Source: Escherichia phage ev099. Taken from it: a stretch of 47,224 nt of DNA. How positions within the stretch are numbered: the first letter of the stretch is position 1; each line of letters starts with the position of its first letter. The position numbers and the translations under genes are program-made. The notes below the pieces were generated by a model. It was not told the DNA's origin. It did no database searches and saw only the letters and a list, made by a program, of their open reading frames with translations. This document shows, in pieces, positions 726 to 44,811 of the stretch. The stretch lies in sequence record NC_049953.1; one strand, written 5' to 3'.

Positions 726-4406
<3,681 letters not shown>

Positions 4407-4426
<20 letters not shown>

Positions 4427-5726
4427 TCTCCCGCATATTGCCAGTATGGCTTTTAATGAGCCGCTGATGCTTGAACCCGCCTATGCGCGGGTTTTCTTTT
4501 GTGCGCTTGCAGGCCAGCTTGGGATCAGCCGCCTGACGGATGCGGTGTCCGGCGACAGCCTGACTGCCCAGGAGGCACTCGCGACGCTGGCATTATCCGG
4601 TGATGATGACGGACCACGACAGGCCCGCAGTTATCAGGTCATGAACGGCATCGCCGTGCTGCCGGTGTCCGGCACGCTGGTCAGCCGGACGCGGGCGCTG
4701 CAGCCGTACTCGGGGATGACCGGTTACAACGGCATTATCGCCCGTCTGCAACAGGCTGCCAGCGACCCGATGGTGGACGGCATTCTGCTCGATATGGACA
4801 CGCCAGGCGGAATGGTGGCGGGGGCATTTGACTGCGCTGACATCATCGCCCGTGTGCGTGACATAAAACCGGTATGGGCGCTGGCCAACGACATGAACTG
4901 CAGTGCAGGTCAGCTGCTTGCCAGTGCCGCCTCCCGGCGTCTGGTCACGCAGACCGCCCGGACAGGCTCCATCGGCGTCATGATGGCTCACAGTAATTAC
5001 GGTGCTGCCCTGGAGAAACAGGGTGTGGAAATCACGCTGATTTACAGCGGCAGCCATAAGGTGGATGGCAATCCCTACAGCCATCTTCCGGATGACGTCC
5101 GGGAGACACTGCAGTCCCGGATGGACGCAACCCGCCAGATGTTTGCACAGAAGGTGTCGGCATATACCGGCCTGTCTGTGCAGGCTGTGCTGGATACCGA
5201 GGCTGCAGTGTACAGCGGTCAGGAGGCCATTGATGCCGGACTGGCTGATGAACTTGTTAACAGCACCGATGCGATCACCGTCATGCGTGATGCACTGGAT
5301 GCGCGTAAATCCCGTCTCTCAGGAGGGCGAATGACCAAAGAGACTCAATCAACAACTGTTTCAGCCACTGCTTCGCAGACTGACGTTACTGACGTGGTGC
5401 CAGCGACGGAGGGCGAAAACGCCAGCGCGGCGCAGCCGGACGTGAACGCGCAGATCACCGCTGCGGTTGCGGCAGAAAACAGCCGCATTATGGGGATCCT
5501 CAACTGTGAGGAGGCTCACGGACGCGAAGAACAGGCCCGCGTGCTGGCCGAAACCCCCGGTATGACCGTGGAAACGGCCCGCCGCATTCTGGCAGCTGCA
5601 CCACAGAGTGCACAGGCGCGCAGTGACACTGCGCTGGATCGTCTGATGCAGGGGGCACCGGCACCGCTGGCTGCAGGTAACCCGGCATCTGATGCCGTTA
5701 ACGATTTGCTGAACACACCAGTGTAA
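4407..5726 (+). CDS. C: capsid assembly protease / scaffold C
   Basis: GTG start at 4407 (MTAELRNLPHIASMAF...), 439 aa; the longer ORF-track start at 4260 lies inside B. Confidence 0.9.
5121..5726 (+). CDS. nu3: scaffolding protein Nu3 (in-frame internal start within C)
   Basis: ATG at 5121 in C frame, same stop; lambda arrangement. Confidence 0.75.
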   Translation: MDATRQMFAQKVSAYTGLSVQAVLDTEAAVYSGQEAIDAGLADELVNSTDAITVMRDALDARKSRLSGGRMTKETQSTTVSATASQTDVTDVVPATEGENASAAQPDVNAQITAAVAAENSRIMGILNCEEAHGREEQARVLAETPGMTVETARRILAAAPQSAQARSDTALDRLMQGAPAPLAAGNPASDAVNDLLNTPV

Positions 5727-7962: not shown

Positions 7963-8541
7963 ATGGCCATAAAAGGTCTTGAGCAGGCCGTTGAAAACCT
8001 CAGCCGTATCAGCAAAACGGCGGTGCCTGGTGCCGCCGCAATGGCCATTAACCGCGTTGCTTCATCCGTGATATCGCAGTCTGCGTCACAGGTTGCCCGT
8101 GAGACAAAGGTACGCCGGAAACTGGTAAAGGAAAGGGCCAGGCTGAAAAGGGCCACGGTCAAAAATCCGCAGGCCAGAATCAAAGTTAACCGGGGGGATT
8201 TGCCCGTAATCAAGCTGGGTAATGCGCGGGTTGTCCTGTCCCGCCGCAGGCGTCGTAAAAAGGGGCAGCGTTCATCCCTGAAAGGTGGCGGCAGCGTGCT
8301 TGTGGTGGGTAACCGTCGTATTCCCGGCGCGTTTATTCAGCAACTGAAAAATGGCCGGTGGCATGTCATGCAGCGTGTGGCCGGGAAAAACCGTTACCCC
8401 ATTGATGTGGTGAAAATCCCGATGGCGGTGCCGCTGACCACGGCGTTTAAACAAAATATTGAGCGGATACGGCGTGAACGTCTTCCGAAAGAGCTGGGCT
8501 ATGCGCTGCAGCATCAACTGAGGATGGTAATAAAGCGATGA
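7963..8541 (+). CDS. Z: tail terminator/tail completion protein Z
   Basis: 192 aa, lambda order. Confidence 0.93.
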   Translation: MAIKGLEQAVENLSRISKTAVPGAAAMAINRVASSVISQSASQVARETKVRRKLVKERARLKRATVKNPQARIKVNRGDLPVIKLGNARVVLSRRRRRKKGQRSSLKGGGSVLVVGNRRIPGAFIQQLKNGRWHVMQRVAGKNRYPIDVVKIPMAVPLTTAFKQNIERIRRERLPKELGYALQHQLRMVIKR

Positions 8542-8933
8542 AACATACTGAACTCCGTGCAGCCGTACTGGATGCACTGGAGAAGCATGACACCGGGGCG
8601 ACGCTTTTTGATGGTCGCCCCGCTGTTTTTGATGAGGAAGATTTTCCGGCAATTGCCGTTTATCTCACCGGCGCTGAATACACGGGCGAAGAGCTGGACA
8701 GCGATACCTGGCAGGCGGAGCTGCATATCGAAGTTTTCCTGCCTGCTCAGGTGCCGGATTCAGAGCTGGATGCGTGGATGGAGTCCCGGATTTATCCGGT
8801 GATGAGCGATATCCCGGCACTGTCAGATTTGATCACCAGTATGGTGGCCAGCGGCTATGACTACCGGCGCGACGATGATGCGGGCCTGTGGAGTTCAGCC
8901 GATCTGACTTATGTCATTACCTATGAAATGTGA
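8538..8933 (+). CDS. U: tail tube terminator protein U
   Basis: 131 aa, ATGA overlap with Z. Confidence 0.93.
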
Positions 8934-8940
8934 GGACGCT

Positions 8941-9681
8941 ATGCCTGTACCAAATCCTACAATGCCGGTGAAAGGTGCCGGGACCACCCTGTGGGTTTAT
9001 AAGGGGAGCGGTGACCCTTATGCGAATCCGCTTTCAGACGTTGACTGGTCGCGTCTGGCAAAAGTTAAAGACCTGACGCCCGGCGAACTGACCGCTGAGT
9101 CCTATGACGACAGCTATCTCGATGATGAAGATGCAGACTGGACCGCGACCGGGCAGGGGCAGAAATCTGCCGGAGATACCAGCTTCACGCTGGCGTGGAT
9201 GCCCGGAGAGCAGGGGCAGCAGGCGCTGCTGGCGTGGTTTAATGAAGGCGATACCCGTGCCTATAAAATCCGCTTCCCGAACGGCACGGTCGATGTGTTC
9301 CGTGGCTGGGTCAGCAGTATCGGTAAGGCGGTGACGGCGAAGGAAGTGATCACCCGCACGGTGAAAGTCACCAATGTGGGACGTCCGTCGATGGCAGAAG
9401 ATCGCAACACGGTAACAGCGGCAACCGGTATGACCGTGACGCCAGCCAGCGCTTCCGTAGTGAAAGGGAAGAGCACCACGCTGACCGTGGCATTCCAGCC
9501 GGAAGGCGCAACCGACAAGAGCTTCCGTGCGGTGTCTGCGGATAAAACAAAAGCCACCGTGTCGGTCAGTGGTATGACCATCACCGTGAAAGGTGTTGCT
9601 GCAGGCAAGGTCAACATTCCGGTTGTATCCGGTAATGGTGAACTTGCTGTGGTTGCAGAAATCACCGTCACCGACAGTTAA
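8941..9681 (+). CDS. V: major tail tube protein V
   Basis: 246 aa from [16 protein letters not shown]... Confidence 0.95.
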
Positions 9682-9696
9682 TCCGGAGAGTCAGCG

Positions 9697-10119
9697 ATGT
9701 TCCTGAAAACCGAATCATTTGAATATAACGGTGTGAGCGTCACGCTTTCTGAACTGTCAGCCCTGCAGCGAATTGAGCATCTCGCCCTGCTGAAACGACA
9801 GGCAGAACAGGCGGGATCCAGTCTCAATCGACAGGTGAGCGTGGAAGATCTCGTCAGAACCGGTGCTTTTCTGGTGGCGATGTCCCTGTGGCATAGCCAT
9901 CCGCAGAAGACAAAGATGCCGTCCATGAATGAAGCCGTTAAACAAATTGAGCAGGAAGTGCTTACCACCTGGCCCGCAGAGGCAATTGCTCAGGCTGAAA
10001 ATGTGGTAATGCGTCTGTCCGGTATGTCTGAGTTTGTTGTGAATGATGCACCTGAACAGGCAGATGACGCCGGGCCAGCAGAGCCTGTTTCTGCGGGAAA
10101 GTGTTCGACGGTGAGCTGA
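9697..10119 (+). CDS. G: tail assembly chaperone G
   Basis: 140 aa ending ...PVSAGKCSTVS. Confidence 0.93.
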   Translation: MFLKTESFEYNGVSVTLSELSALQRIEHLALLKRQAEQAGSSLNRQVSVEDLVRTGAFLVAMSLWHSHPQKTKMPSMNEAVKQIEQEVLTTWPAEAIAQAENVVMRLSGMSEFVVNDAPEQADDAGPAEPVSAGKCSTVS

Positions 10120-10535: not shown

Positions 10536-13089
10536 ACCGGTAGGCGATCTGGTCGTTGATTTAAGTCTGGATGCGGCCAGATTTGACGAGCAGATGGCCA
10601 GAGTCAGGCGTCATTTTTCCGGTACGGAAAGTGATGCGAAAAAAACAGCGGCAGTCGTTGAACAGTCGCTGAGCCGACAGGCGCTGGCTGCACAGAAAGC
10701 GGGGATTTCCGTCGGGCAGTATAAAGCCGCCATGCGTATGCTGCCTGCACAGTTCACCGACGTGGCCACGCAGCTTGCAGGCGGGCAAAGTCCGTGGCTG
10801 ATCCTGCTGCAACAGGGTGGTCAGGTTAAGGACTCCTTCGGCGGGATGATCCCCATGTTCAGGGGGCTTGCCGGTGCGATCACCCTGCCGATGGTGGGGG
10901 CCACCTCGCTGGCGGTGGCGACCGGTGCGCTGGCGTATGCCTGGTATCAGGGCAACTCAACCCTGTCCGATTTCAACAAAACGCTGGTCCTTTCCGGCAA
11001 TCAGTCGGGACTGACGGCAGATCGTATTCTGGCCCTGTCCAGAGCCGGGCAGGCGGCAGGGCTGACGTTTAACCAGACCAGCGAGTCACTGACGGCGCTG
11101 GTGAATGCCGGTGTGCGTGGTGGTGAGCAGTTTGAGGCGATCAGCCAGAGTGTGGCGCGTTTCTCCTCTGCATCCGGCGTGGAGGTGGACAAGGTCGCTG
11201 AAGCCTTCGGGAAGCTGACCACAGACCCGACGTCGGGACTGACAGCGATGGCACGTCAGTTCCATAACGTGACGGCGGAGCAGATTGCGTATGTTGCTCA
11301 GTTGCAGCGTTCCGGCGATGAAGCCGGGGCATTGCAGGCGGCGAACGAGGCCGCGACGAAAGGGTTTGATGACCAGACCCGCCGCCTGAAAGAGAACATG
11401 GGTACGCTGGAGACCTGGGCAGACAGGACAGCGCGGGCATTCAAATCCATGTGGGATGCGGTGCTGGATATTGGTCGTCCTGATACCGCGCAGGAGATGC
11501 TGATTAAGGCAGAGGCTGCGTTTAAGAAAGCGGACGACATCTGGAGTCTGCGCAAGGATGATTATTTTGTTAACGATGAAGCGCGGGCGCGTTACTGGGA
11601 TGATCGTGAAAAGGCCCGTCTTGCGCTTGAAGCCGCGAGAAAGAAGGCTGAACAGCAGAGTCAACAGGACACAAATGCGCAGCAGCAGAGCGATACTGAA
11701 GCGTCACGGCTGAAATATACCGAAGAGGCGCAGAAGGCTTACGAACGGCTGCAGACGCCGCTGGAGAAATATACCGCCCGTCAGGAAGAACTGAACAAGG
11801 CACTGAAGGACGGGAAAATTCTGCAGGCAGATTACAACACGCTGATGGCGGCGGCGAAAAAGGACTATGAAGCGACGCTGAAAAAGCCGAAACAGTCCGG
11901 CGTGAAGGTGTCTGCGGGCGATCGTCAGGAAGACAGTGCTCATGCTGCCCTGCTGACGCTTCAGGCTGAACTCCGGACGCTGGAGAAGCATGCCGGAGCA
12001 AATGAGAAAATCAGCCAGCAGCGCCGGGATTTGTGGAAGGCGGAGAGTCAGTTCGCGGTACTGGAGGAGGCGGCGCAACGTCGCCAGCTGTCTGCACAGG
12101 AGAAATCCCTGCTGGCGCATAAAGATGAGACGCTGGAGTACAAACGCCAGCTGGCTGCACTTGGCGACAAGGTTACGTATCAGGAGCGCCTGAACGCGCT
12201 GGCGCAGCAGGCGGATAAATTCGCACAGCAGCAACGGGCAAAACGGGCCGCCATTGATGCGAAAAGCCGGGGGCTGACTGACCGGCAGGCAGCGCGGGAA
12301 GCCACAGAACAGCGCCTGAAGGAACAGTATGGCGATAATCCTCTGGCGCTGAATAACGTCATGTCAGAGCAGAAAAAGACCTGGGCGGCTGAAGACCAGC
12401 TTCGCGGGAGCTGGATGGCAGGCCTCAGGTCCGGCTGGAGTGAGTGGGAAGAGAGCGCCACGGACAGTATGTCGCAGGTTAAAAGTGCAGCCGCGCAGAC
12501 CTTTGATGGTATTGCGCAGAATATGGCGGCGATGCTGACCGGCAGTGAGCAGAACTGGCGCAGCTTCACCCGTTCCGTGCTGTCCATGATGACAGAAATT
12601 CTGCTTAAGCAGGCAATGGTGGGGATTGTCGGGAGTATCGGCAGCGCCATTGGCGGTGCTGCCAGTGGTGGAGCATCAGCGTCAGGCGGTACAGCCATTC
12701 AGGCAGCTGCGGCGAAATTCCATTTTGCGACCGGAGGATTTACGGGAACCGGCGGCAAATATGAGCCAGCGGGGATTGTTCACCGTGGTGAATTTGTCTT
12801 CACGAAGGAGGCAACCAGCCGGATTGGCGTGGGGAATCTTTACCGGCTGATGCGCGGCTATGCCACCGGCGGTTATGTCGGTACACCGGGCAGCATGGCA
12901 GACAGCCGGTCGCAGGCGTCCGGGACGTTTGAGCAGAATAACCATGTGGTGATTAACAACGACGGCACGAACGGGCAGATAGGTCCGGCTGCTCTGAAGG
13001 CAGTGTATGACATGGCCCGCAAGGGTGCCCGTGATGAAATCCAGGCACAGATGCGCGATGGTGGTCTGTTCTCCGGAGGTGGACGATGA
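10528..13089 (+). CDS. H: tail tape measure protein
   Basis: 853 aa, lambda gpH. Confidence 0.97.
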   Translation: MAEPVGDLVVDLSLDAARFDEQMARVRRHFSGTESDAKKTAAVVEQSLSRQALAAQKAGISVGQYKAAMRMLPAQFTDVATQLAGGQSPWLILLQQGGQVKDSFGGMIPMFRGLAGAITLPMVGATSLAVATGALAYAWYQGNSTLSDFNKTLVLSGNQSGLTADRILALSRAGQAAGLTFNQTSESLTALVNAGVRGGEQFEAISQSVARFSSASGVEVDKVAEAFGKLTTDPTSGLTAMARQFHNVTAEQIAYVAQLQRSGDEAGALQAANEAATKGFDDQTRRLKENMGTLETWADRTARAFKSMWDAVLDIGRPDTAQEMLIKAEAAFKKADDIWSLRKDDYFVNDEARARYWDDREKARLALEAARKKAEQQSQQDTNAQQQSDTEASRLKYTEEAQKAYERLQTPLEKYTARQEELNKALKDGKILQADYNTLMAAAKKDYEATLKKPKQSGVKVSAGDRQEDSAHAALLTLQAELRTLEKHAGANEKISQQRRDLWKAESQFAVLEEAAQRRQLSAQEKSLLAHKDETLEYKRQLAALGDKVTYQERLNALAQQADKFAQQQRAKRAAIDAKSRGLTDRQAAREATEQRLKEQYGDNPLALNNVMSEQKKTWAAEDQLRGSWMAGLRSGWSEWEESATDSMSQVKSAAAQTFDGIAQNMAAMLTGSEQNWRSFTRSVLSMMTEILLKQAMVGIVGSIGSAIGGAASGGASASGGTAIQAAAAKFHFATGGFTGTGGKYEPAGIVHRGEFVFTKEATSRIGVGNLYRLMRGYATGGYVGTPGSMADSRSQASGTFEQNNHVVINNDGTNGQIGPAALKAVYDMARKGARDEIQAQMRDGGLFSGGGR

Positions 13090-15490: not shown

Positions 15491-18400
15491 ATGGGTAAAG
15501 GCAGCAGTAAGGGGCATACTCCGCGCGAAGCGAAGGACAACCTGAAGTCCACGCAGTTGCTGAGTGTGATCGATGCCATCAGCGAAGGGCCGGTTGAAGG
15601 TCCGGTGGATGGATTAAAAAGCGTGCTGCTGAACAGTACGCCAGTGCTGGACAGTGAGGGGAATACCAATATCTCCGGCGTCACGGTGGTGTTCCGGGCC
15701 GGTGAGCAGGAGCAGACACCGCCGGAGGGATTTGAATCCTCCGGCTCCGAGACGGTGCTGGGTACGGAAGTGAAATACGACACGCCGATCACCCGGACCA
15801 TCACGTCGGCAAACATTGACCGACTGCGTTTTACCTTCGGCGTGCAGGCACTGGTGGAAACCACCTCAAAGGGGGACAGGAATCCGTCGGAAGTCCGCCT
15901 GCTGGTTCAGATCCAGCGTAATGGTGGCTGGGTGACGGAAAAAGACATCACCATTAAGGGCAAAACCACCTCGCAGTATCTGGCCTCGGTGGTGGTGGGT
16001 AACCTGCCGCCGCGCCCGTTCAATATCCGGATGCGCAGGATGACGCCGGACAGCACCACAGACCAGCTGCAGAACAAAACGCTCTGGTCGTCATACACCG
16101 AAATCATCGATGTGAAACAGTGCTACCCGAACACGGCACTGGTCGGCGTGCAGGTGGATTCGGAGCAGTTCGGCAGCCAGCAGGTGAGCCGTAATTATCA
16201 TCTGCGCGGGCGCATTCTGCAGGTGCCGTCGAACTATAACCCGCAGACGCGGCAATACAGCGGTATCTGGGACGGAACGTTTAAACCGGCATACAGCAAC
16301 AACCCGGCCTGGTGTCTGTGGGATATGCTGACCCACCCGCGCTACGGCATGGGGAAACGTCTTGGTGCGGCGGATGTGGATAAATGGGCGCTGTATGTCA
16401 TCGGCCAGAATTGCGACCAGTCGGTGCCGGACGGCTTTGGCGGCACGGAGCCGCGCATCACCTGTAATGCCTGGCTGACCACACAGCGCAAGGCGTGGGA
16501 TGTGCTCAGTGATTTCTGCTCGGCGATGCGCTGTATGCCGGTATGGAACGGGCAGACGCTGACGTTCGTGCAGGACCGACCATCAGATAAGGTGTGGACC
16601 TATAACCGCAGTAATGTGGTGATGCCGGATGATGGCGCGCCGTTCCGCTACAGCTTCAGCGCCCTGAAGGACCGCCATAATGCCGTTGAGGTGAACTGGA
16701 TTGACCCGAACAACGGCTGGGAGACGGCGACAGAGCTTGTGGAGGACACGCAGGCCATTGCCCGTTACGGTCGTAACGTCACGAAGATGGATGCCTTTGG
16801 CTGTACCAGCCGGGGGCAGGCACATCGCGCCGGGCTGTGGCTGATTAAAACAGAACTGCTGGAAACGCAGACCGTGGACTTCAGCGTGGGCGCAGAAGGG
16901 CTTCGCCATGTGCCGGGCGATGTCATTGAAATCTGTGATGATGACTATGCCGGTATCAGCATCGGCGGGCGCGTGCTGGCGGTAAACAGCCAGACCCGGA
17001 CGCTGACGCTCGACCGTGAAATCACGCTGCCATTCTCCGGTACCACGCTGATAAGCCTGGTTGACGGAAGTGGCAATCCGGTCAGCGTGGAGGTTCAGTC
17101 CGTCACCGACGGCGTGAAGGTGAAAGTGAGCCGTGTTCCTGACGGCGTTGCTGAATACAGCGTGTGGGGGCTGAAGCTGCCGACGCTGCGCCAGCGCCTG
17201 TTCCGCTGCGTGAGTATCCGTGAGAACGACGACGGCACGTATGCCATCACCGCCGTGCAGCATGTACCGGAAAAAGAAGCCATCGTGGATAACGGGGCGC
17301 ACTTTGACGGCGACCAGAGCGGCACGGTGAATGGTGTCACGCCGCCAGCGGTGCAGCACCTGACTGCCGAAGTCACCGCAGACAGCGGGGAATATCAGGT
17401 GCTGGCGCGCTGGGACACGCCGAAGGTGGTGAAGGGCGTGAGCTTCCTGCTCCGTCTGACCGTAACAGCGGATGACGGCAGTGAGCGGCTGGTCAGCACG
17501 GCCCGGACGACGGAAACCACTTACCGCTTCACACAACTGGCGCTGGGGAACTACAGGCTGACAGTCCGGGCAGTAAATGCGTGGGGGCAGCAGGGCGATC
17601 CGGCGTCGGTATCGTTCCGGATTGCCGCACCGGCAGCGCCGTCGCGGATTGAGCTGACGCCGGGCTATTTTCAGATAACCGCCACGCCGCATCTTGCGGT
17701 TTATGATCCGACGGTACAGTTTGAGTTCTGGTTCTCGGAAAAGCGGATTGCGGATATCAGGCAGGTTGAAACCACAGCACGCTATCTTGGCACGGCGCTG
17801 TACTGGATAGCCGCCAGTATCAATATCAAACCGGGCCATGATTATTACTTTTATATCCGCAGTGTGAACACCGTTGGCAAATCGGCATTCGTGGAGGCTG
17901 TTGGTCAGCCGAGTGATGATGCATCCGGTTATCTGGATTTTTTCAAAGGCGAGATAGGGAAAACCCATCTGGCTCAGGAGCTGTGGACGCAGATTGATAA
18001 CGGTCAGCTTGCGCCTGACCTGGCTGAAATCAGGACGTCCATTACGGATGTCAGCAATGAAATCACGCAGACCGTCAATAAGAAACTGGAAGACCAGAGT
18101 GCGGCAATTCAGCAGATACAGAAGGTTCAGGTTGATACAAATAATAACCTGAACAGCATGTGGGCAGTGAAGCTGCAGCAGATGCAGGACGGACGCCTTT
18201 ATATTGCGGGTATCGGTGCCGGTATTGAGAACACCCCTGACGGCATGCAGAGTCAGGTGCTGCTGGCAGCAGACAGGATTGCGATGATTAATCCTGCGAA
18301 TGGCAACACAAAGCCGATGTTTGTTGGTCAGGGCGATCAGATATTCATGAATGAAGTGTTCCTGAAACGCCTGACGGCCCCCACCATTACCAGCGGCGGT

Positions 18401-18988
18401 AATCCTCCGGCATTTTCCCTGACATCAGACGGGAGACTGACGGCGAAAAATGCGGATATCAGTGGCAGTGTGAATGCGAACTCAGGAACGCTCAACAATG
18501 TCACGATTAACCAGAACTGTACGATTAAGGGCATGCTGGAGGCGACCCAGGTCAGAGGTGACTTCGTTAAAGCTGTATCCAAATCATTCCCGAAACAGGC
18601 TGGTACGTGGGGTAACACGGAAACACCAAACGGGACGGTTACAGTCACCATAAGCGATGATCATAACTTTGACCGTCAAATCATTATTCCGCCCATTATC
18701 TTTAACGGAATAGCGTATAGCGATCCGGGAAGTGGTAATAACCCGGGAGGTACAAGATACACGGGTTATGGTTTTGAAGTTCGCAAAAACGGTGTATTAA
18801 TCGCATCCAGAGAAACTAAAGGGGCTATTCCCGGTAGCTACAGTGCGGTTATTGATATGCCGAGTGGCAGGGGAAGCGTCACTCTGGAGTTTAAGGTTTT
18901 CCATAAAGGCAATCAGTGGGCAGGTAATATCACCGACTGTACGGTGATTGTGACCAAAAAAGCCGCTTCCGGCATCAGTATTCGTTGA
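15491..18988 (+). CDS. J: tip attachment / central tail fiber protein J, with divergent extended C-terminal receptor-binding region
   Basis: 1165 aa (lambda J is 1132 aa as I recall); most of the protein is lambda-like, last approx 150 aa diverge. Confidence 0.93.
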
Positions 18989-19008
18989 AATTGTTATAAC
19001 CCATATAA

Positions 19009-19033
19009 GGGCACCAGAAATGGTGCCTTTTTT
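19009..19033 (+). terminator. rho-independent terminator after J
   Basis: gggcacca-gaaa-tggtgcc hairpin followed by tttttt. Confidence 0.7.
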
Positions 19034-19057
19034 ATTGCAGAAAAGCGAGAGGTAATT

Positions 19058-19657
19058 ATGCGTAAACTTTATGCCGCCATTTTGTCCGCAGCCATTTGTC
19101 TGGCCGTATCCGGTGCGCCTGCATGGGCATCTGAACATCAGTCCACGCTGAGCGCGGGGTATCTTCATGCCTTGACGAACGTTCCCGGCAGCGATGATCT
19201 TAACGGGATTAACGTGAAATACCGTTATGAGTTTACGGACACACTGGGGCTGGTGACGTCATTCAGCTATGCAGGAGACAAGAATCGCCAGCTTACCCGT
19301 TACAGCGATACCCGCTGGCATGAAGATTCCGTGCGTAACCGCTGGTTCAGCGTGATGGCGGGGCCGTCTGTGCGCGTGAATGAATGGTTCAGCGCGTATG
19401 CGATGGCGGGTATGGCTTACAGCCGTGTTTCGACTTTCTCCGGAGATTATATCCGCGTAACTGACAACAAGGGGAAAACGCACGATGTGCTGACCGGAAG
19501 TGATGACGGTCGCCACAGCAACACGTCTCTGGCGTGGGGAGCTGGCGTGCAGTTTAACCCGACCGAATCCGTGGCCGTTGACGTCGCTTATGAAGGCTCC
19601 GGCAGCGGTGACTGGCGTACCAACAGTTTCATCGTGGGTGTCGGTTATAAATTCTGA
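19058..19657 (+). CDS. lom: outer membrane protein Lom (Ail/PagC family)
   Basis: 199 aa with signal peptide [24 protein letters not shown] and C-terminal ...GVGYKF. Confidence 0.93.
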
Positions 19658-19710: not shown

Positions 19711-19721
19711 GTGGGGTGAAT

Positions 19722-21890
19722 ATGGCAGTAAAGATTTCAGGTGTACTGAAAGACGGCACAGGAAAACCGGTACAGAACTGCACAATCCAGCTGAAAGCAA
19801 AACGTAACAGCACCACGGTGGTGGTGAACACGCTGGCCTCAGAAAATCCGGATGAAGCCGGGCGTTACAGTATGGACGTTGAGTACGGTCAGTACAGCGT
19901 TATTCTGTTGGTGGAAGGATTCCCGCCGTCACATGCCGGGACCATCACCGTGTATGAAGATTCCCGACCCGGTACGCTGAATGATTTTCTCGGTGCCATG
20001 ACGGAGGATGATGCCCGTCCGGAGGCTCTGCGCCGTTTTGAACTGATGGTGGAAGAGGTGGCGCGTAACGCGTCCGCGGTGGCACAGAACACGGCAGCCG
20101 CGAAGAAGTCAGCCGGCGATGCCGGCACATCTGCCCGTGAGGCGGCAACCCATGCGACTGATGCTGCAGGCTCAGCACGCGCAGCCAGCACGTCAGCCGG
20201 ACAGGCCGCTTCGTCGGCTCAGTCAGCGTCTTCCAGCGCAGGAACGGCATCAACAAAGGCCACTGAAGCGGAAAAAAGTGCTGCCGCTGCAGAGTCCTCA
20301 AAAAGCGCGGCAGCTACCAGTGCCAGTGCCGCGAAAACGTCTGAAACGAATGCTGCAGCGTCACAACAATCAGCAGCCACTTCTGCATCCACCGCGACTA
20401 CGAAAGCGTCAGAAGCTGCCATCTCAGCCCGGGATGCGTCGGCTTCAAAAGAGGCGGCAAAATCATCAGAAACGAACGCATCCTCGAGCGCCAGTAGCGC
20501 AGCTTCCTCGGCAACGGCGGCAGCAAATTCCGCGAAGGCGGCAAAAACGTCCGAGACGAACGCCAGGTCTTCTGAGACGGCAGCGGGACAGAGCGCCTCA
20601 GCTGCGGCAGGCTCAAAAACAGCGGCTGCGTCGTCTGCCAGTGCCGCGTCAACAAGTGCCGGGCAGGCCTCAGCCAGTGCCACCGCCGCCGGAAAATCGG
20701 CAGAAAGCGCCGCATCATCCGCTTCAACAGCCACAACGAAGGCTGGCGAAGCCACTGAACAGGCCACTGCAGCAGCGAGGGCTGCTTCCGCAGCGAAGAC
20801 ATCCGAAACGAACGCGAAAGCGTCGGAAACCAGCGCAGAATCCTCAAAAACGGCTGCCGCATCGTCCGCCAGTTCGGCGGCGTCATCGGCATCATCTGCG
20901 TCTGCTTCAAAAGATGAGGCGACCAGACAGGCGTCAGCAGCGAGGGGCAGCGCCACGACGGCATCCACGAAGGCGACAGAGGCTGCTGGCAGTGCGGCAG
21001 CGGCAGCACAGAGCAAAAGTACGGCAGAATCCGCAGCAACGCGCGCTGAGACAGCGGCAAAACGTGCAGAGGATATTGCATCCGCCGTGGCGCTTGAGGA
21101 TGCGAGCACGACGAAAAAGGGGGTAGTACAGCTCAGCAGTGCGACCAACAGTACGTCTGAAACGCTGGCGGCAACGCCAAAGGCAGTAAAATCAGCCTAT
21201 GACAATGCAGAGAAACGTCTGCAGAAAGACCAGAACGGCGCTGATATACCCGATAAGGGACGCTTCCTGAACAACATTAACGCGGTCAGTAAAACAGACT
21301 TTGCTGATAAGCGTGGTATGCGTTATGTGCGGGTTAACGCTCCTGCAGGTGCAACATCTGGAAAATATTACCCTGTTGTTGTTATGCGTTCTGCTGGCTC
21401 AGTAAGCGAACTGGCATCAAGGGTCATTATCACCACGGCAACGCGAACCGCAGGCGATCCGATGAATAACTGCGAGTTTAACGGATTTGTTATGCCTGGT
21501 GGCTGGACTGACAGGGGGCGTTATGCTTATGGAATGTTCTGGCAATATCAAAACAATGAACGAGCCATCCACTCAATAATGATGAGTAATAAGGGCGATG
21601 ATTTGCGCTCTGTGTTCTATGTTGATGGCGCTGCTTTCCCTGTTTTTGCGTTTATCGAAGATGGCCTGTCAATATCCGCACCTGGTGCTGATCTCGTTGT
21701 TAATGATACGACCTATAAGTTTGGGGCAACAAATCCGGCGACTGAATGTATCGCGGCGGACGTTATCCTTGATTTTAAGAGTGGGCGTGGTTTTTATGAG
21801 TCTCATTCGTTAATCGTTAACGATAACTTGTCGTGCAAAAAACTTTTTGCCACAGACGAAATTGTAGCGCGTGGTGGTAATCAGATTTGA
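19722..21890 (+). CDS. stf: side tail fiber, proximal part: lambda Stf N-terminus plus Ala/Ser/Thr-rich repeats plus non-lambda C-terminal domain, ending at an in-frame TGA
   Basis: MAVKISGVLKDGTGKPVQNCTIQLKAK... matches lambda Stf start; ORF ends NQI-TGA immediately followed by ATG in the same frame. Confidence 0.8.
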   Translation: MAVKISGVLKDGTGKPVQNCTIQLKAKRNSTTVVVNTLASENPDEAGRYSMDVEYGQYSVILLVEGFPPSHAGTITVYEDSRPGTLNDFLGAMTEDDARPEALRRFELMVEEVARNASAVAQNTAAAKKSAGDAGTSAREAATHATDAAGSARAASTSAGQAASSAQSASSSAGTASTKATEAEKSAAAAESSKSAAATSASAAKTSETNAAASQQSAATSASTATTKASEAAISARDASASKEAAKSSETNASSSASSAASSATAAANSAKAAKTSETNARSSETAAGQSASAAAGSKTAAASSASAASTSAGQASASATAAGKSAESAASSASTATTKAGEATEQATAAARAASAAKTSETNAKASETSAESSKTAAASSASSAASSASSASASKDEATRQASAARGSATTASTKATEAAGSAAAAAQSKSTAESAATRAETAAKRAEDIASAVALEDASTTKKGVVQLSSATNSTSETLAATPKAVKSAYDNAEKRLQKDQNGADIPDKGRFLNNINAVSKTDFADKRGMRYVRVNAPAGATSGKYYPVVVMRSAGSVSELASRVIITTATRTAGDPMNNCEFNGFVMPGGWTDRGRYAYGMFWQYQNNERAIHSIMMSNKGDDLRSVFYVDGAAFPVFAFIEDGLSISAPGADLVVNDTTYKFGATNPATECIAADVILDFKSGRGFYESHSLIVNDNLSCKKLFATDEIVARGGNQI
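20100..21110 (+). repeat. degenerate tandem coding repeats (KTSETNA / SAAASSAS motifs) within stf
   Basis: Reiterated gaaaacgtctgaaacgaatgc-like units; GC-rich, which also creates long spurious ORFs in other frames. Confidence 0.7.
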
Positions 21891-23123
21891 ATGATAGGTG
21901 GGGAGTATGGTGCATTATGGCGTAATGATGGCGCTAAAACTTACCTGCTGCTTACCAATCAAGGTGATGTTTATGGTGGCTGGAATACATTAAGACCGTT
22001 TGCTATTGATAACGCAACCGGCGAACTGATTATTGGAACCAAACTGTCCGCAAGTCTGAACGGTAATGCATTAACAGCAACAAAGCTGCAAACGCCAAGA
22101 CTGGTTTCTGGTGTTGAGTTTGATGGTTCCAAAGATATTACTTTAACCGCCGCGCATGTGGCTGCTTTTGCCAGAAGGGCAACGGATACATATGCCGATG
22201 CGGATGGGGGCGTTCCATGGAATGCCGAATCAGGCGCTTACAATGTCACCCGCTCTGGCGACAGCTATATTCTGGTTAACTTCTATACCGGAGTCGGAAG
22301 TTGCCGGACCCTGCAGATGAAGGCACATTACAGAAATGGAGGTCTGTTCTACCGTTCCTCAAGAGATGGCTATGGTTTTGAGGAAGACTGGGCAGAAGTT
22401 TATACCTCGAAAAATCTTCCACCAGAAAGCTACCCAGTCGGCGCACCAATCCCGTGGCCATCAGATACCGTTCCGCCTGGTTATGCCCTGATGCAGGGGC
22501 AGACTTTTGACAAATCTGCATACCCGAAACTTGCAGCCGCTTATCCGTCAGGCGTGATCCCTGATATGCGTGGCTGGACGATTAAGGGCAAACCTGCCAG
22601 TGGTCGCGCCGTATTGTCTCAGGAACAGGACGGCATTAAATCGCACACCCACAGCGCCAGCGCATCCAGTACGGATTTGGGGACGAAAACCACATCGTCG
22701 TTTGATTACGGAACCAAATCCACGAATAACACCGGGGCGCATACCCATAGTATTAGCGGGACCGCAAATAGTGCCGGTGCGCACCAACACAAGAGTTCCG
22801 GTGCATTTGGTGGCACGAACACGAGCATTTTCCCTAATGGTTATACCGCGATTTCAAATCCAAGCGCGGGGATTATGAGCACAACAAGCGGTAGTGGCCA
22901 GACTCGTAATGCAGGAAAGACATCATCAGATGGTGCTCATACCCACTCGCTGTCCGGCACTGCTGCAAGCGCAGGCGCACATGCACATACTGTCGGTATT
23001 GGTGCTCATACGCACTCCGTTGCGATTGGCTCACATGGACACACCATCACCGTTAACGCTGCGGGTAACGCGGAAAACACCGTCAAAAACATCGCATTTA
23101 ACTATATTGTGAGGCTTGCATAA
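21891..23123 (+). CDS. stf: side tail fiber, distal part: collar and His-box region ending with the conserved ...[11 protein letters not shown] tip
   Basis: 410 aa, same frame as upstream stf ORF; contains GAPIPWPSD collar motif and GAHTHS/GAHAHT His boxes. Confidence 0.8.
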
Positions 23124-23704
23124 TGGCATTCAGAATGAGTGAACAACCACGGACCATAAAAATTTATAATCTGCTGGCCGGAACTAATGAATTTATTGGT
23201 GAAGGTGACGCATATATTCCGCCTCATACAGGTCTGCCAGCAAACAGTACCGATATTGCACCGCCAGATATTCCGGCTGGCTTTGTGGCTGTTTTCAACA
23301 GTGATGAGGCATCGTGGCATCTCGTTGAAGACCATCGGGGTAAAACGGTTTATGACGTAGCGTCAGGGGACGCGTTATTTATTTCTGAACTCGGTCCGTT
23401 ACCGGAAAATGTTACCTGGTTATCGCCGGAAGGGGAGTTTCAGAAGTGGAACGGCACAGCCTGGGTGAAGGATACGGAAGCAGAAAAACTGTTCCGGATC
23501 CGGGAGGCGGAAGAAACAAAAAACAGCCTGATGCAGGTAGCCAGTGAGCATATTGCGCCACTTCAGGATGCTGTAGATCTGGAAATCGCAACGGAGGAAG
23601 AAATCTCGTTGCTGGAAGCATGGAAGAAGTATCGGGTGTTGCTGAACCGTGTTAATACAACAACTGCACCGGATATTGAATGGCCAGTAGCACCTATAGG
23701 GTAA
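23123..23704 (+). CDS. tfa: tail fiber assembly protein
   Basis: 193 aa [24 protein letters not shown]...; TAATG overlap with stf stop as in lambda. Confidence 0.93.
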
Positions 23705-33058: not shown

Positions 33059-33191
33059 TTTTGGGTACTCCTGGCTGATTAAGTATGTCGATAAGGCGTT
33101 TCCATCCGTCACGTAATTTACGGGTGATTCGTTCAAGTAAAGATTCGGAAGGGCAGCCAGCAACAGGCCACCCTGCAATGGCATATTGCAT
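33051..33191 (-). CDS. cIII: CIII FtsH/HflB inhibitor (46 codons here)
   Basis: [46 protein letters not shown] then TAA. Confidence 0.85.
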   Translation of the reverse strand: MQYAIAGWPVAGCPSESLLERITRKLRDGWKRLIDILNQPGVPKNG

Positions 33192-33263
33192 GGTGTGCTC
33201 CTTATTTATACATAACGAAAAACGCCTCGAGTGAAGCGTTATTGGTATGCGGTAAAGCCGCAC

Positions 33264-42427: not shown

Positions 42428-43510
42428 TTAGAACTGGTAAACCATACCTACAGCAACGATATCATCGGTAGCAACGCCAGATGCTTTCGTGAAATCGCTC
42501 TTATCAATCAGGTTGATTTTGTAGTCAACAAAAGTGGACATATTTTTGTTGAAGTAATAGGTTGCACCTACATCAACATATTCAACCAGGTCCTGATCAC
42601 CCCAAACACCCAAGTCTTTTCCTTTAGAATGCAGGTAAGCAACGGATGGACGCAGGCCGAAGTCGAACTGATATTGTGCAACAGCTTCGAAGTTTTGTGC
42701 TTTGTTGGCAATATGGTTATTACCAAAAACAGTCATGTTCTGGGTTTCAGAATAGGTGGTGGCCAGATAGATGTTGTTCGCATCATATTTCAGACCAGCT
42801 GCCCATACTTCAGCATTTTGACCAGAAGCATTCAGACCGTTGTTACCGTAGATAACCTGATTATTAGTGCGATCAGATTTAGCATAGGTTGCACCCACGC
42901 CGAATCCTTCATACTCATAAGTAGTTGAGAAACCGAAACCATCGCCATTAGCTTCAGTTACTTCATTTCGGTCATTTTTGCCCTGATACTGAGCTGCAAA
43001 GTTCAGGCCATCAACCAGACCAAAGAAGTCGTTGTTACGATAAGTTGCAACACCTGTGGTGCGACCAGTCATGAATACATCTGTTTGGGTCCAGGTATCG
43101 CCACCGAATTCTGGCAGAACGTCAGTCCACGCACCGATGTCGTATGCTACACCGTAGTTACGGCCGTAATCGATTGAGCCGTAGTCACCGAATTTCAGGC
43201 CTGCAAATGCAAGACGGGTTTTGTCTTTGGAGGAACCTTGAGATTCAGCGCGGTTGCCTTTGAATTCATATTCCCACTGACCGAAACCAGTCAGTTGATC
43301 GTTGATTTGGGTTTCACCTTTGAAGCCAAGACGGGCATAAGTAGTATCACCATCATCTGCATCATTAGAGGAGAAGTAGTGCTTAGCATTAACTTTCCCG
43401 TACAGATCCAGCTTGTTACTGTCTTTATTATAAATTTCAGCTGCCTGAGCAGACATCGCCATCAGTACTGATGCAGCTACAGCAGAAATTGCCACTGTTA
43501 ATTTTTTCAT
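42428..43510 (-). CDS. outer membrane general porin (NmpC/Lc/OmpC family), intact
   Basis: 360 aa; signal peptide [39 protein letters not shown]..., C-terminal ...VAVGMVYQF. Confidence 0.93.
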
Positions 43511-44098: not shown

Positions 44099-44314
44099 AT
44101 GAAATCCATGGATAAGTTAACAACGGGTGTCGCCTATGGCACCTCAGCAGGTAGTGCCGGTTACTGGTTTTTACAGCTGCTCGATAAAGTCACGCCCTCA
44201 CAGTGGGCAGCAATAGGTGTGCTGGGTAGCCTGGTATTTGGCCTGCTGACGTACCTGACAAACCTTTATTTCAAGATTAAAGAAGATAAGCGCAAGGCTG
44301 CGAGAGGTGAATAA
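44099..44314 (+). CDS. S: class II holin / pinholin (S21-type) with dual-start MKSM motif
   Basis: 71 aa [71 protein letters not shown]. Confidence 0.9.
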
Positions 44315-44811
44315 TGCCTCCATCATTACGAAAAGCCGTTGCTGCTGCTATTGGTGGCGGAGCAATTGCTATAGCATCAGTGTTAATTACTGGCCCAAGT
44401 GGTAACGATGGTCTGGAAGGTGTCAGCTACATACCATACAAAGATATTGTTGGTGTATGGACTGTATGTCACGGGCATACAGGAAAAGACATCATGCTCG
44501 GTAAAACGTATACCAAAGCAGAATGCAAAGCCCTCCTGAATAAAGACCTTGCCACGGTCGCCAGACAAATTAACCCGTACATCAAAGTCGATATACCGGA
44601 AACAATGCGCGGCGCTCTTTACTCATTCGTTTACAACGTGGGTGCTGGCAATTTCAGAACATCGACGCTTCTTCGCAAAATAAACCAGGGCGATATCAAA
44701 GGCGCATGTGATCAGCTACGTCGCTGGACATATGCTGGCGGTAAGCAATGGAAAGGTCTCATGACTCGTCGTGAGATTGAGCGTGAAATCTGTTTGTGGG
44801 GTCAGCAATGA
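44314..44811 (+). CDS. R: SAR endolysin (T4-lysozyme-like true lysozyme with N-terminal signal-anchor-release domain)
   Basis: 165 aa [44 protein letters not shown]...; TAATG overlap with holin. Confidence 0.9.

Follow-up and report, generated by a model that had tools for sequence, protein, structure and literature searches.

In the 47,224-nt stretch of Escherichia phage ev099 analysed here (NC_049953.1; hereafter the window), gene J, which encodes the tip attachment or central tail fibre protein, specifies an ordinary lambda-family tail-tip protein that is a mosaic of three pieces. We consider it very likely that this J is a recombinant made up of a lambda-like hub with its FNIII domains, a long helical shaft and, attached via a junction of ~50 residues, phage 434's receptor-binding domain (RBD), and that it docks onto OmpC. 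The phage is predicted to need OmpC, not LamB.

The gene (15491..18988, + strand) is an uninterrupted open reading frame of 1165 aa plus stop. By exact-sequence look-up, its product equals YP_009909918.1/VUF53445.1, an Escherichia phage ev099 entry deposited under the name ‘tail fiber protein’, and the UniRef entry that contains this protein has 39 members. A phmmer comparison with the lambda gpJ structure (8iyk_J) returned E=0 over residues 1-1164; homology is full-length, and the order of domains matches that of lambda gpJ. The Pfam families Phage-tail_3 (aa 330-496), FNIII-A_GpJ, Ig_J, Ig_J_second, Phage_Tail_Tip (aa 872-1000) and Ig_GpJ_C all scored above their curated cut-offs, with two Ig/FNIII domains spanning aa 610-818, and no Pfam model matched aa 819-871. 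Besides, J lies in a tail cluster of lambda-type order (...H-M-L-K-I-J-lom-stf-tfa), with matches to L, K and I upstream and to lom, stf and tfa downstream. The nearest relative of ev099 in the phage collection is mEp332 (~97%), and the left arm likewise gave ~97%. As its hub part is 98% identical to lambda, ev099 J would be expected to form a homotrimer that seals the tail tip and makes up the central fibre.

The boundaries of the segments were drawn from protein and DNA alignments of ev099 J with lambda, 434 and Kati. A conserved N-terminal part, comprising the hub and two FNIII/Ig domains (aa 1-803; 15491..17898, + strand), is 98% identical to lambda and 99% to 434 at the protein level, and its coding sequence has 96-97% nucleotide identity to lambda. 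Mismatches set in at 17899, where the variant shaft module begins (aa 804-949; 17899..~18337, + strand). This module encodes the alpha-helical shaft and the top of the beta-prism fibre; its protein is 42% identical to lambda and 43% to 434, and its DNA ~60% identical to these two phages; identity to Kati is 99%. Next, in the lower fibre, comes a conserved junction (aa 950-~1000; 18338..~18490, + strand; 94% aa identity to lambda, 92% to 434), which is common to all J types and is likely a recombination joint. The last piece is a 434-type receptor-binding module (aa ~999-1165; 18484..18985, + strand), 96% identical to 434 and matched by Ig_GpJ_C. The lambda DNA departs from that of ev099 at nt 18484-18495 (aa ~999-1002), and the 434 DNA is identical to ev099 over 18446-18558. 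Along J, DNA identity to lambda changes in steps, from 96-97% to ~60%, then to 85-93% and finally to 44-67%, and the abruptness of these steps argues that modules were exchanged by recombination and against local drift. The specificity region of J has been reported to circulate as an independently recombining segment (PMC6646904), and functional gpJ chimeras have been made by fusion at lambda residue 964 (PMC11338833), which aligns with aa 992 of ev099 J, inside the conserved junction.

This layout also accounts for the length of the protein. J comprises 1132 aa in lambda (NC_001416 15505..18903), 1137 aa in 434 and 1165 aa in both Kati and ev099, so that the excess of 33 codons over lambda in the original prediction is borne out by the open reading frame list and by the alignment. 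Most of it, however, lies outside the receptor-binding region to which it had been linked: 28 of the 33 extra codons fall in aa 804-949, in the helical shaft and ~500 nt upstream of the interval flagged earlier (18420-18988), and the C-terminal domain contributes a net five residues relative to lambda (+11/-6), the two together making up the 33. Pairwise alignment with lambda J confirmed that the C-terminus is divergent rather than identical, with 40% identity over aa 1001-1165. As to where J stops following lambda, the protein had been said to track it up to the motif AFSLT and to diverge thereafter. The divergence is real, but identity has already dropped to 42% at aa 804-949, well before that motif; and the C-terminal divergence placed at 18420 begins at 18484-18495, since ~22 further lambda-like residues, with two substitutions, follow AFSLT.

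Over its full extent (aa 1001-1165), the RBD of ev099 is identical to that of phage 434 at 158/165 positions, in a gap-free alignment with equal loop lengths and 85-100% nucleotide identity per 60-nt block. It is furthermore identical to the RBD of IdasGreatGrand (165/165) and differs from that of Ayreon at two positions early in the module (I1006V, Q1008E; 163/165). The Pfam model Ig_GpJ_C, described as a ‘C-terminal receptor binding domain’, covers aa 1029-1164 (E=9e-26). We also obtained an AlphaFold2 (AF2) model of aa 790-1165, a monomer built from a 16-sequence alignment and used for secondary structure and a rough match of the RBD fold. Its RBD part reached a pLDDT of 65-84, and the best Foldseek matches were the gpJ fibres 9wca, 8xck, 8xcj and 9wcb, with a target-normalised TM score of 0.64 against 9wcb, the A8 gpJ bound to OmpC.

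According to passages in three papers that cite Hantke 1978 and Fuerst & Bingham 1978, phage 434 uses OmpC as its receptor, and moving the 434 J into lambda (h434) switches the receptor from LamB to OmpC (PMC11101478, PMC3509688, PMC12502783). As the RBD of ev099 is 96% identical to that of 434, and both 434 and lambda h434 use OmpC, this porin is the likeliest receptor of ev099, and its RBD most likely binds the OmpC trimer. The original proposal of a receptor other than LamB is thereby supported and, by homology to the RBD of 434, made specific. The literature searched contained no adsorption or plating reports for ev099 or for any phage with exactly its RBD, nor did it contain receptor typing for PhiR, mEp332 or ev phages, or receptor data for Kati, Ayreon, cdtI or IdasGreatGrand.

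How OmpC binding might be transmitted to the tail can be modelled on lambda. The trimeric 434-type RBD would dock its four bottom loops onto trimeric OmpC instead of LamB; OmpC binding would then spread the bases of the RBD, the beta-prism fibre would twist, the helical shaft would flip or fold back and refold in part, and, finally, the FNIII domains would be released and the tail tip would open. Spreading of the RBD, twisting of the fibre, refolding of the shaft, and FNIII release with opening of the tip were shown for lambda and LamB (PMC11101478). For ev099 J, these signalling steps are extrapolated from that pair, to a shaft that is a different, longer allele.

The extension of the shaft consists of aa 836-856 (nt 17996-18058) and aa 860-866 (nt 18068-18088), opposite gaps between V835 and D840 of lambda. 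It amounts to 28 residues, or four heptads, and is absent from lambda and 434. In lambda gpJ, the shaft helices are formed by residues 809-840 and 841-861 (PMC11101478), which places the insertion within the helical shaft, close to where the two helices meet. The AF2 monomer contains helices at J residues 811-823, 826-836 and 841-891, at low confidence (mean pLDDT 48.8 over the modelled aa 790-1165), and predicts, in sum, ~28 more helical residues than lambda has. Consistent with a heptad pattern, 9/15 of the a/d positions in aa 843-895 are hydrophobic, compared with 26% elsewhere. Indel peaks outside the specificity region of J have been described and left unexplained (PMC6646904), and these may include the shaft insertion of the ev099 type.

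A shaft four heptads longer would add ~4 nm if fully helical, and this could alter the reach of the fibre or the energy of the trigger. Our guess is that it is probably a longer yet functionally equivalent, neutral allele. It seems unlikely to us that the 28-residue extension is a functional tuning element and that, as a second and weaker part of the same reading, OmpC-type J proteins and phage-borne porins travel together as a strategy of entry and replacement. The idea of tuning derives from the position of the extension in a shaft that flips and partly refolds into beta-strands during lambda signalling; if true, the extension could shift the trigger threshold, or the reach to porins under O-antigen or capsule. 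With a chimeric query, no joint match of the long shaft and the lambda LamB-type RBD was found (0/5426 E. coli genomes), although this shaft combines freely with RBDs of both OmpC types; the former is a null result that is uninformative alone because the lambda RBD is almost confined to laboratory lysogens. Whichever its role, the natural polymorphism of long and short shafts offers a possible probe of how receptor binding reaches the tail opening.

The second part of that reading concerns a general porin of the PA-2 lc/nmpC type (360 aa; 42428..43510, - strand; Pfam Porin_1, E=3.5e-152) encoded in the window. OmpC is the receptor of phage PA-2 and, in PA-2 lysogens, is replaced by the Lc porin of the phage; the literature searched yielded no papers on exclusion involving PA-2 Lc and OmpC. 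The ev099 porin gene has 89.5% nucleotide identity to PA-2 lc (J02580), a record that is a 2.8-kb fragment only, and its product has ~62% aa identity to K-12 OmpC. The porin gene is situated a few hundred bases upstream of a 165-aa open reading frame (44314..44811), a candidate for the lysis endolysin R, and an Rfam scan found no IpeX-like sRNA near the porin gene. Porins of the ev099 type are present in 34 phage records. We typed the J of carriers from BLAST coverage (12, of the 434 type) or by local tblastn (14), and all typed carriers have an RBD of the 434 or A8 family, except D2 with its hybrid, split J. The annotation of D2 (OM475427; fetched locus 1409-4802) divides J into two CDS, and the RBD of this J begins as lambda (100% over 76 aa) and then changes. 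The lambda-type RBD accounts for ~8% of J-bearing records and for 0/~33 porin carriers, which corresponds to about p = 0.05 before allowing for relatedness; as this RBD type is rare and the records are related, the association of the porin with OmpC-type J is not significant. The data are consistent with a tie between the two, without demonstrating it. If it were true, an OmpC-type J combined with an lc/nmpC-type porin would amount to a strategy of entering through OmpC and then replacing it.

Returning to the RBD, the preferred reading of OmpC as receptor has to be weighed against finer shifts in specificity. It differs from 434 at seven positions (S1032A, Q1036K, A1037V, N1047D, S1077D, R1127G and W1143R), several of them within or close to the variable loop regions, and these differences could retarget the RBD to particular OmpC alleles, to OmpF or to NmpC/Lc instead of K-12 OmpC. 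Precedents exist: tested on 23 OmpC alleles, the gpJ variants A8 and 1A2 do not use the same ones, 1A2 gpJ accepting the OmpC of EDL933 but not that of K-12 (PMC11338833), and evolved J proteins of lambda and of phage 21 reach OmpF (for phage 21, PMC11336670). We nonetheless regard such retargeting as quite unlikely, since Ayreon, with two RBD residues different from ev099, had a derivative of E. coli K-12 as its isolation host (PMC5764929), PhiR34_1 and mEp332, whose RBDs have 7 differences, list MG1655 as host, and the ev099 RBD allele is widespread across diverse E. coli. Because natural gpJ RBDs discriminate between OmpC alleles, the range of OmpC variants open to ev099 is uncertain.

That the RBD might still recognise LamB through a variant contact surface, leaving the receptor unchanged from lambda, is very improbable. 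Fold and family of the domain are those of lambda, and a related J, that of phage 21, shifts among LamB, OmpC and OmpF by few mutations (PMC11336670). Yet identity to the lambda RBD (residues ~973-1132) is as low as 40%, the alignment has gaps in four loop regions, and the ev099 RBD is not among the 22 phage records that match lambda's RBD. Natural J variants carry indels at four loop regions (lambda 1012, 1048, 1077 and 1107), which have been hypothesised to be surface loops affecting host specificity (PMC6646904), and all four differ in length between ev099 and lambda. Also against a LamB contact is the 96% identity to the RBD of 434, whose transfer into lambda swaps LamB for OmpC. Least credible of all, with a probability close to nil, is that an artefact (a mis-called start, frameshift, read-through or assembly error) accounts for the extra length; we rejected frameshift or misannotation as its source, since the reading frame is unbroken and has the same start as lambda J, a J of exactly 1165 aa is found in Kati, PhiR34_1, mEp332, Ayreon and others, and a protein identical to ev099 J has been deposited from several sources.

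The recombinant, OmpC-directed J that we favour is built from modules that circulate widely. In a survey of 120 homologues from databases and 21 fetched loci of phages, the 434-type RBD was paired with a short shaft of the lambda type in 434 and IdasGreatGrand and also with shafts 99, 84, 72 and 60% identical to that of ev099, and the long shaft of the ev099 type was paired also with A8-type RBDs (ev017, PhiR70_1, Chlobot). Shaft and RBD modules of J assort independently. Among the fetched loci, J of PhiR29_2 (1736-5132) is annotated as two overlapping CDS, and PhiR63_2 has a shorter J with an RBD match in two separate pieces.

The last 1.1 kb of ev099 J, which contains both variant modules, was found at a coverage of at least 80% in 1164/5426 complete E. 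coli genomes, with a 100% identical copy in E. coli O78 strain 3, and both modules belong to the most frequent alleles of J that E. coli prophages carry. Sorted by RBD, 129 phage records are of the 434 type, 98 of the A8 type and 22 of the lambda (LamB) type. These 22 are all at least 99% identical and represent lambda and close derivatives (such as DE3, HK629 and HK630), and the best matches listed for the lambda RBD in complete E. coli genomes are laboratory strains and lysogens. The J of ev099 is therefore of the common kind, and it is the lambda reference that is the outlier; with the LamB-type RBD being so rare, a difference from lambda is a poor criterion of novelty for J. In fact, ev099 J is already known, as a deposited protein with a host-specificity annotation, the classical h434 RBD allele and very common modules.

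Just downstream of J, a consensus scan detected a terminator-like hairpin with a T-run (19007..19036, + strand), and a terminator is annotated at the equivalent position in phage 434. Next come lom (19058..19657, + strand), encoding an Ail/Lom outer-membrane protein (Pfam Ail_Lom, E=2e-119), and the side tail fibre gene stf (19716..23123, + strand), which is interrupted by an in-frame TGA at 21888-21890 and so appears as two open reading frames of 724 and 410 aa in one frame. In Kati, the codon reads CGA (Arg), and stf is a single gene of 1132 aa. The TGA of ev099 is a nonsense mutation (C to T) and recalls the frameshift in stf that laboratory lambda carries. With its stf split, ev099 probably lacks complete side fibres and would rely on J alone, much like laboratory lambda. 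In tfa (23123..23704), the 3' part holds a gathering-level Rfam match to IS009 (RF02111, 229 bits; 23466..23664, + strand). In three other phages, a sitBCD manganese/iron ABC transporter cargo is located downstream of the tail fibre genes (ev017 8050-10001, PhiR57_1 11299-13001 and PhiR63_2 11621-13001 of the fetched loci); these carriers combine a long shaft with an A8-like RBD. Elsewhere in the window, the lambda cIII thermoregulator element of Rfam matched at 33146..33204 (- strand; RF01804, 88.5 bits), which shows that the early left operon has a cIII leader of the lambda type.

Among known systems, the J of phage 434 (UMO75286.1, the h434 allele) resembles that of ev099 in its RBD (96%, 158/165), in its N-terminal 803 aa (99%) and in the J-lom-stf context, and 434 also bears an nmpC-type porin gene. 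It differs in having the short lambda-type shaft (43% identity over aa 804-949) without the 28-aa extension, and in seven RBD substitutions. Lambda gpJ (P03749; PDB 8IYK, 8XCJ, 8XCK) shares family, domain order, genome position and the Ig-like fold of the RBD, whereas its RBD is 40% identical with indels in four loop regions, its shaft is 28 aa shorter and its receptor is LamB. The A8-type RBD (PDB 9WCA, and 9WCB with OmpC) shares the fold and occurs on the same backbones, including the long shaft of the ev099 type. Chlobot, Turner, PhiR30_1 and PhiR70_1 carry it at 100% identity, and 4A7, 1W, 3W, ev017 and others at ~82%; its use of OmpC was established with engineered lambda particles (PMC11338833) and with phage phi330 (PMC12502783), whose RBD DNA is 99.1% identical to that of A8. 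The ev099 RBD does not belong to this type, with 46.7% identity over 167 aa; at ~47%, the A8 RBD represents a separate lineage, so that its OmpC contacts are not transferable residue by residue. IdasGreatGrand has an RBD identical to that of ev099, but on a short shaft in a J of 1137 aa. The closest counterparts are Kati, PhiR34_1, mEp332 and Ayreon, which combine an ev099-like long shaft with a 434-type RBD at 96-97% DNA identity over J; cdtI and ev243 are likewise grouped with the 1165-aa J proteins, and the J proteins of all these phages differ from that of ev099 by few substitutions.
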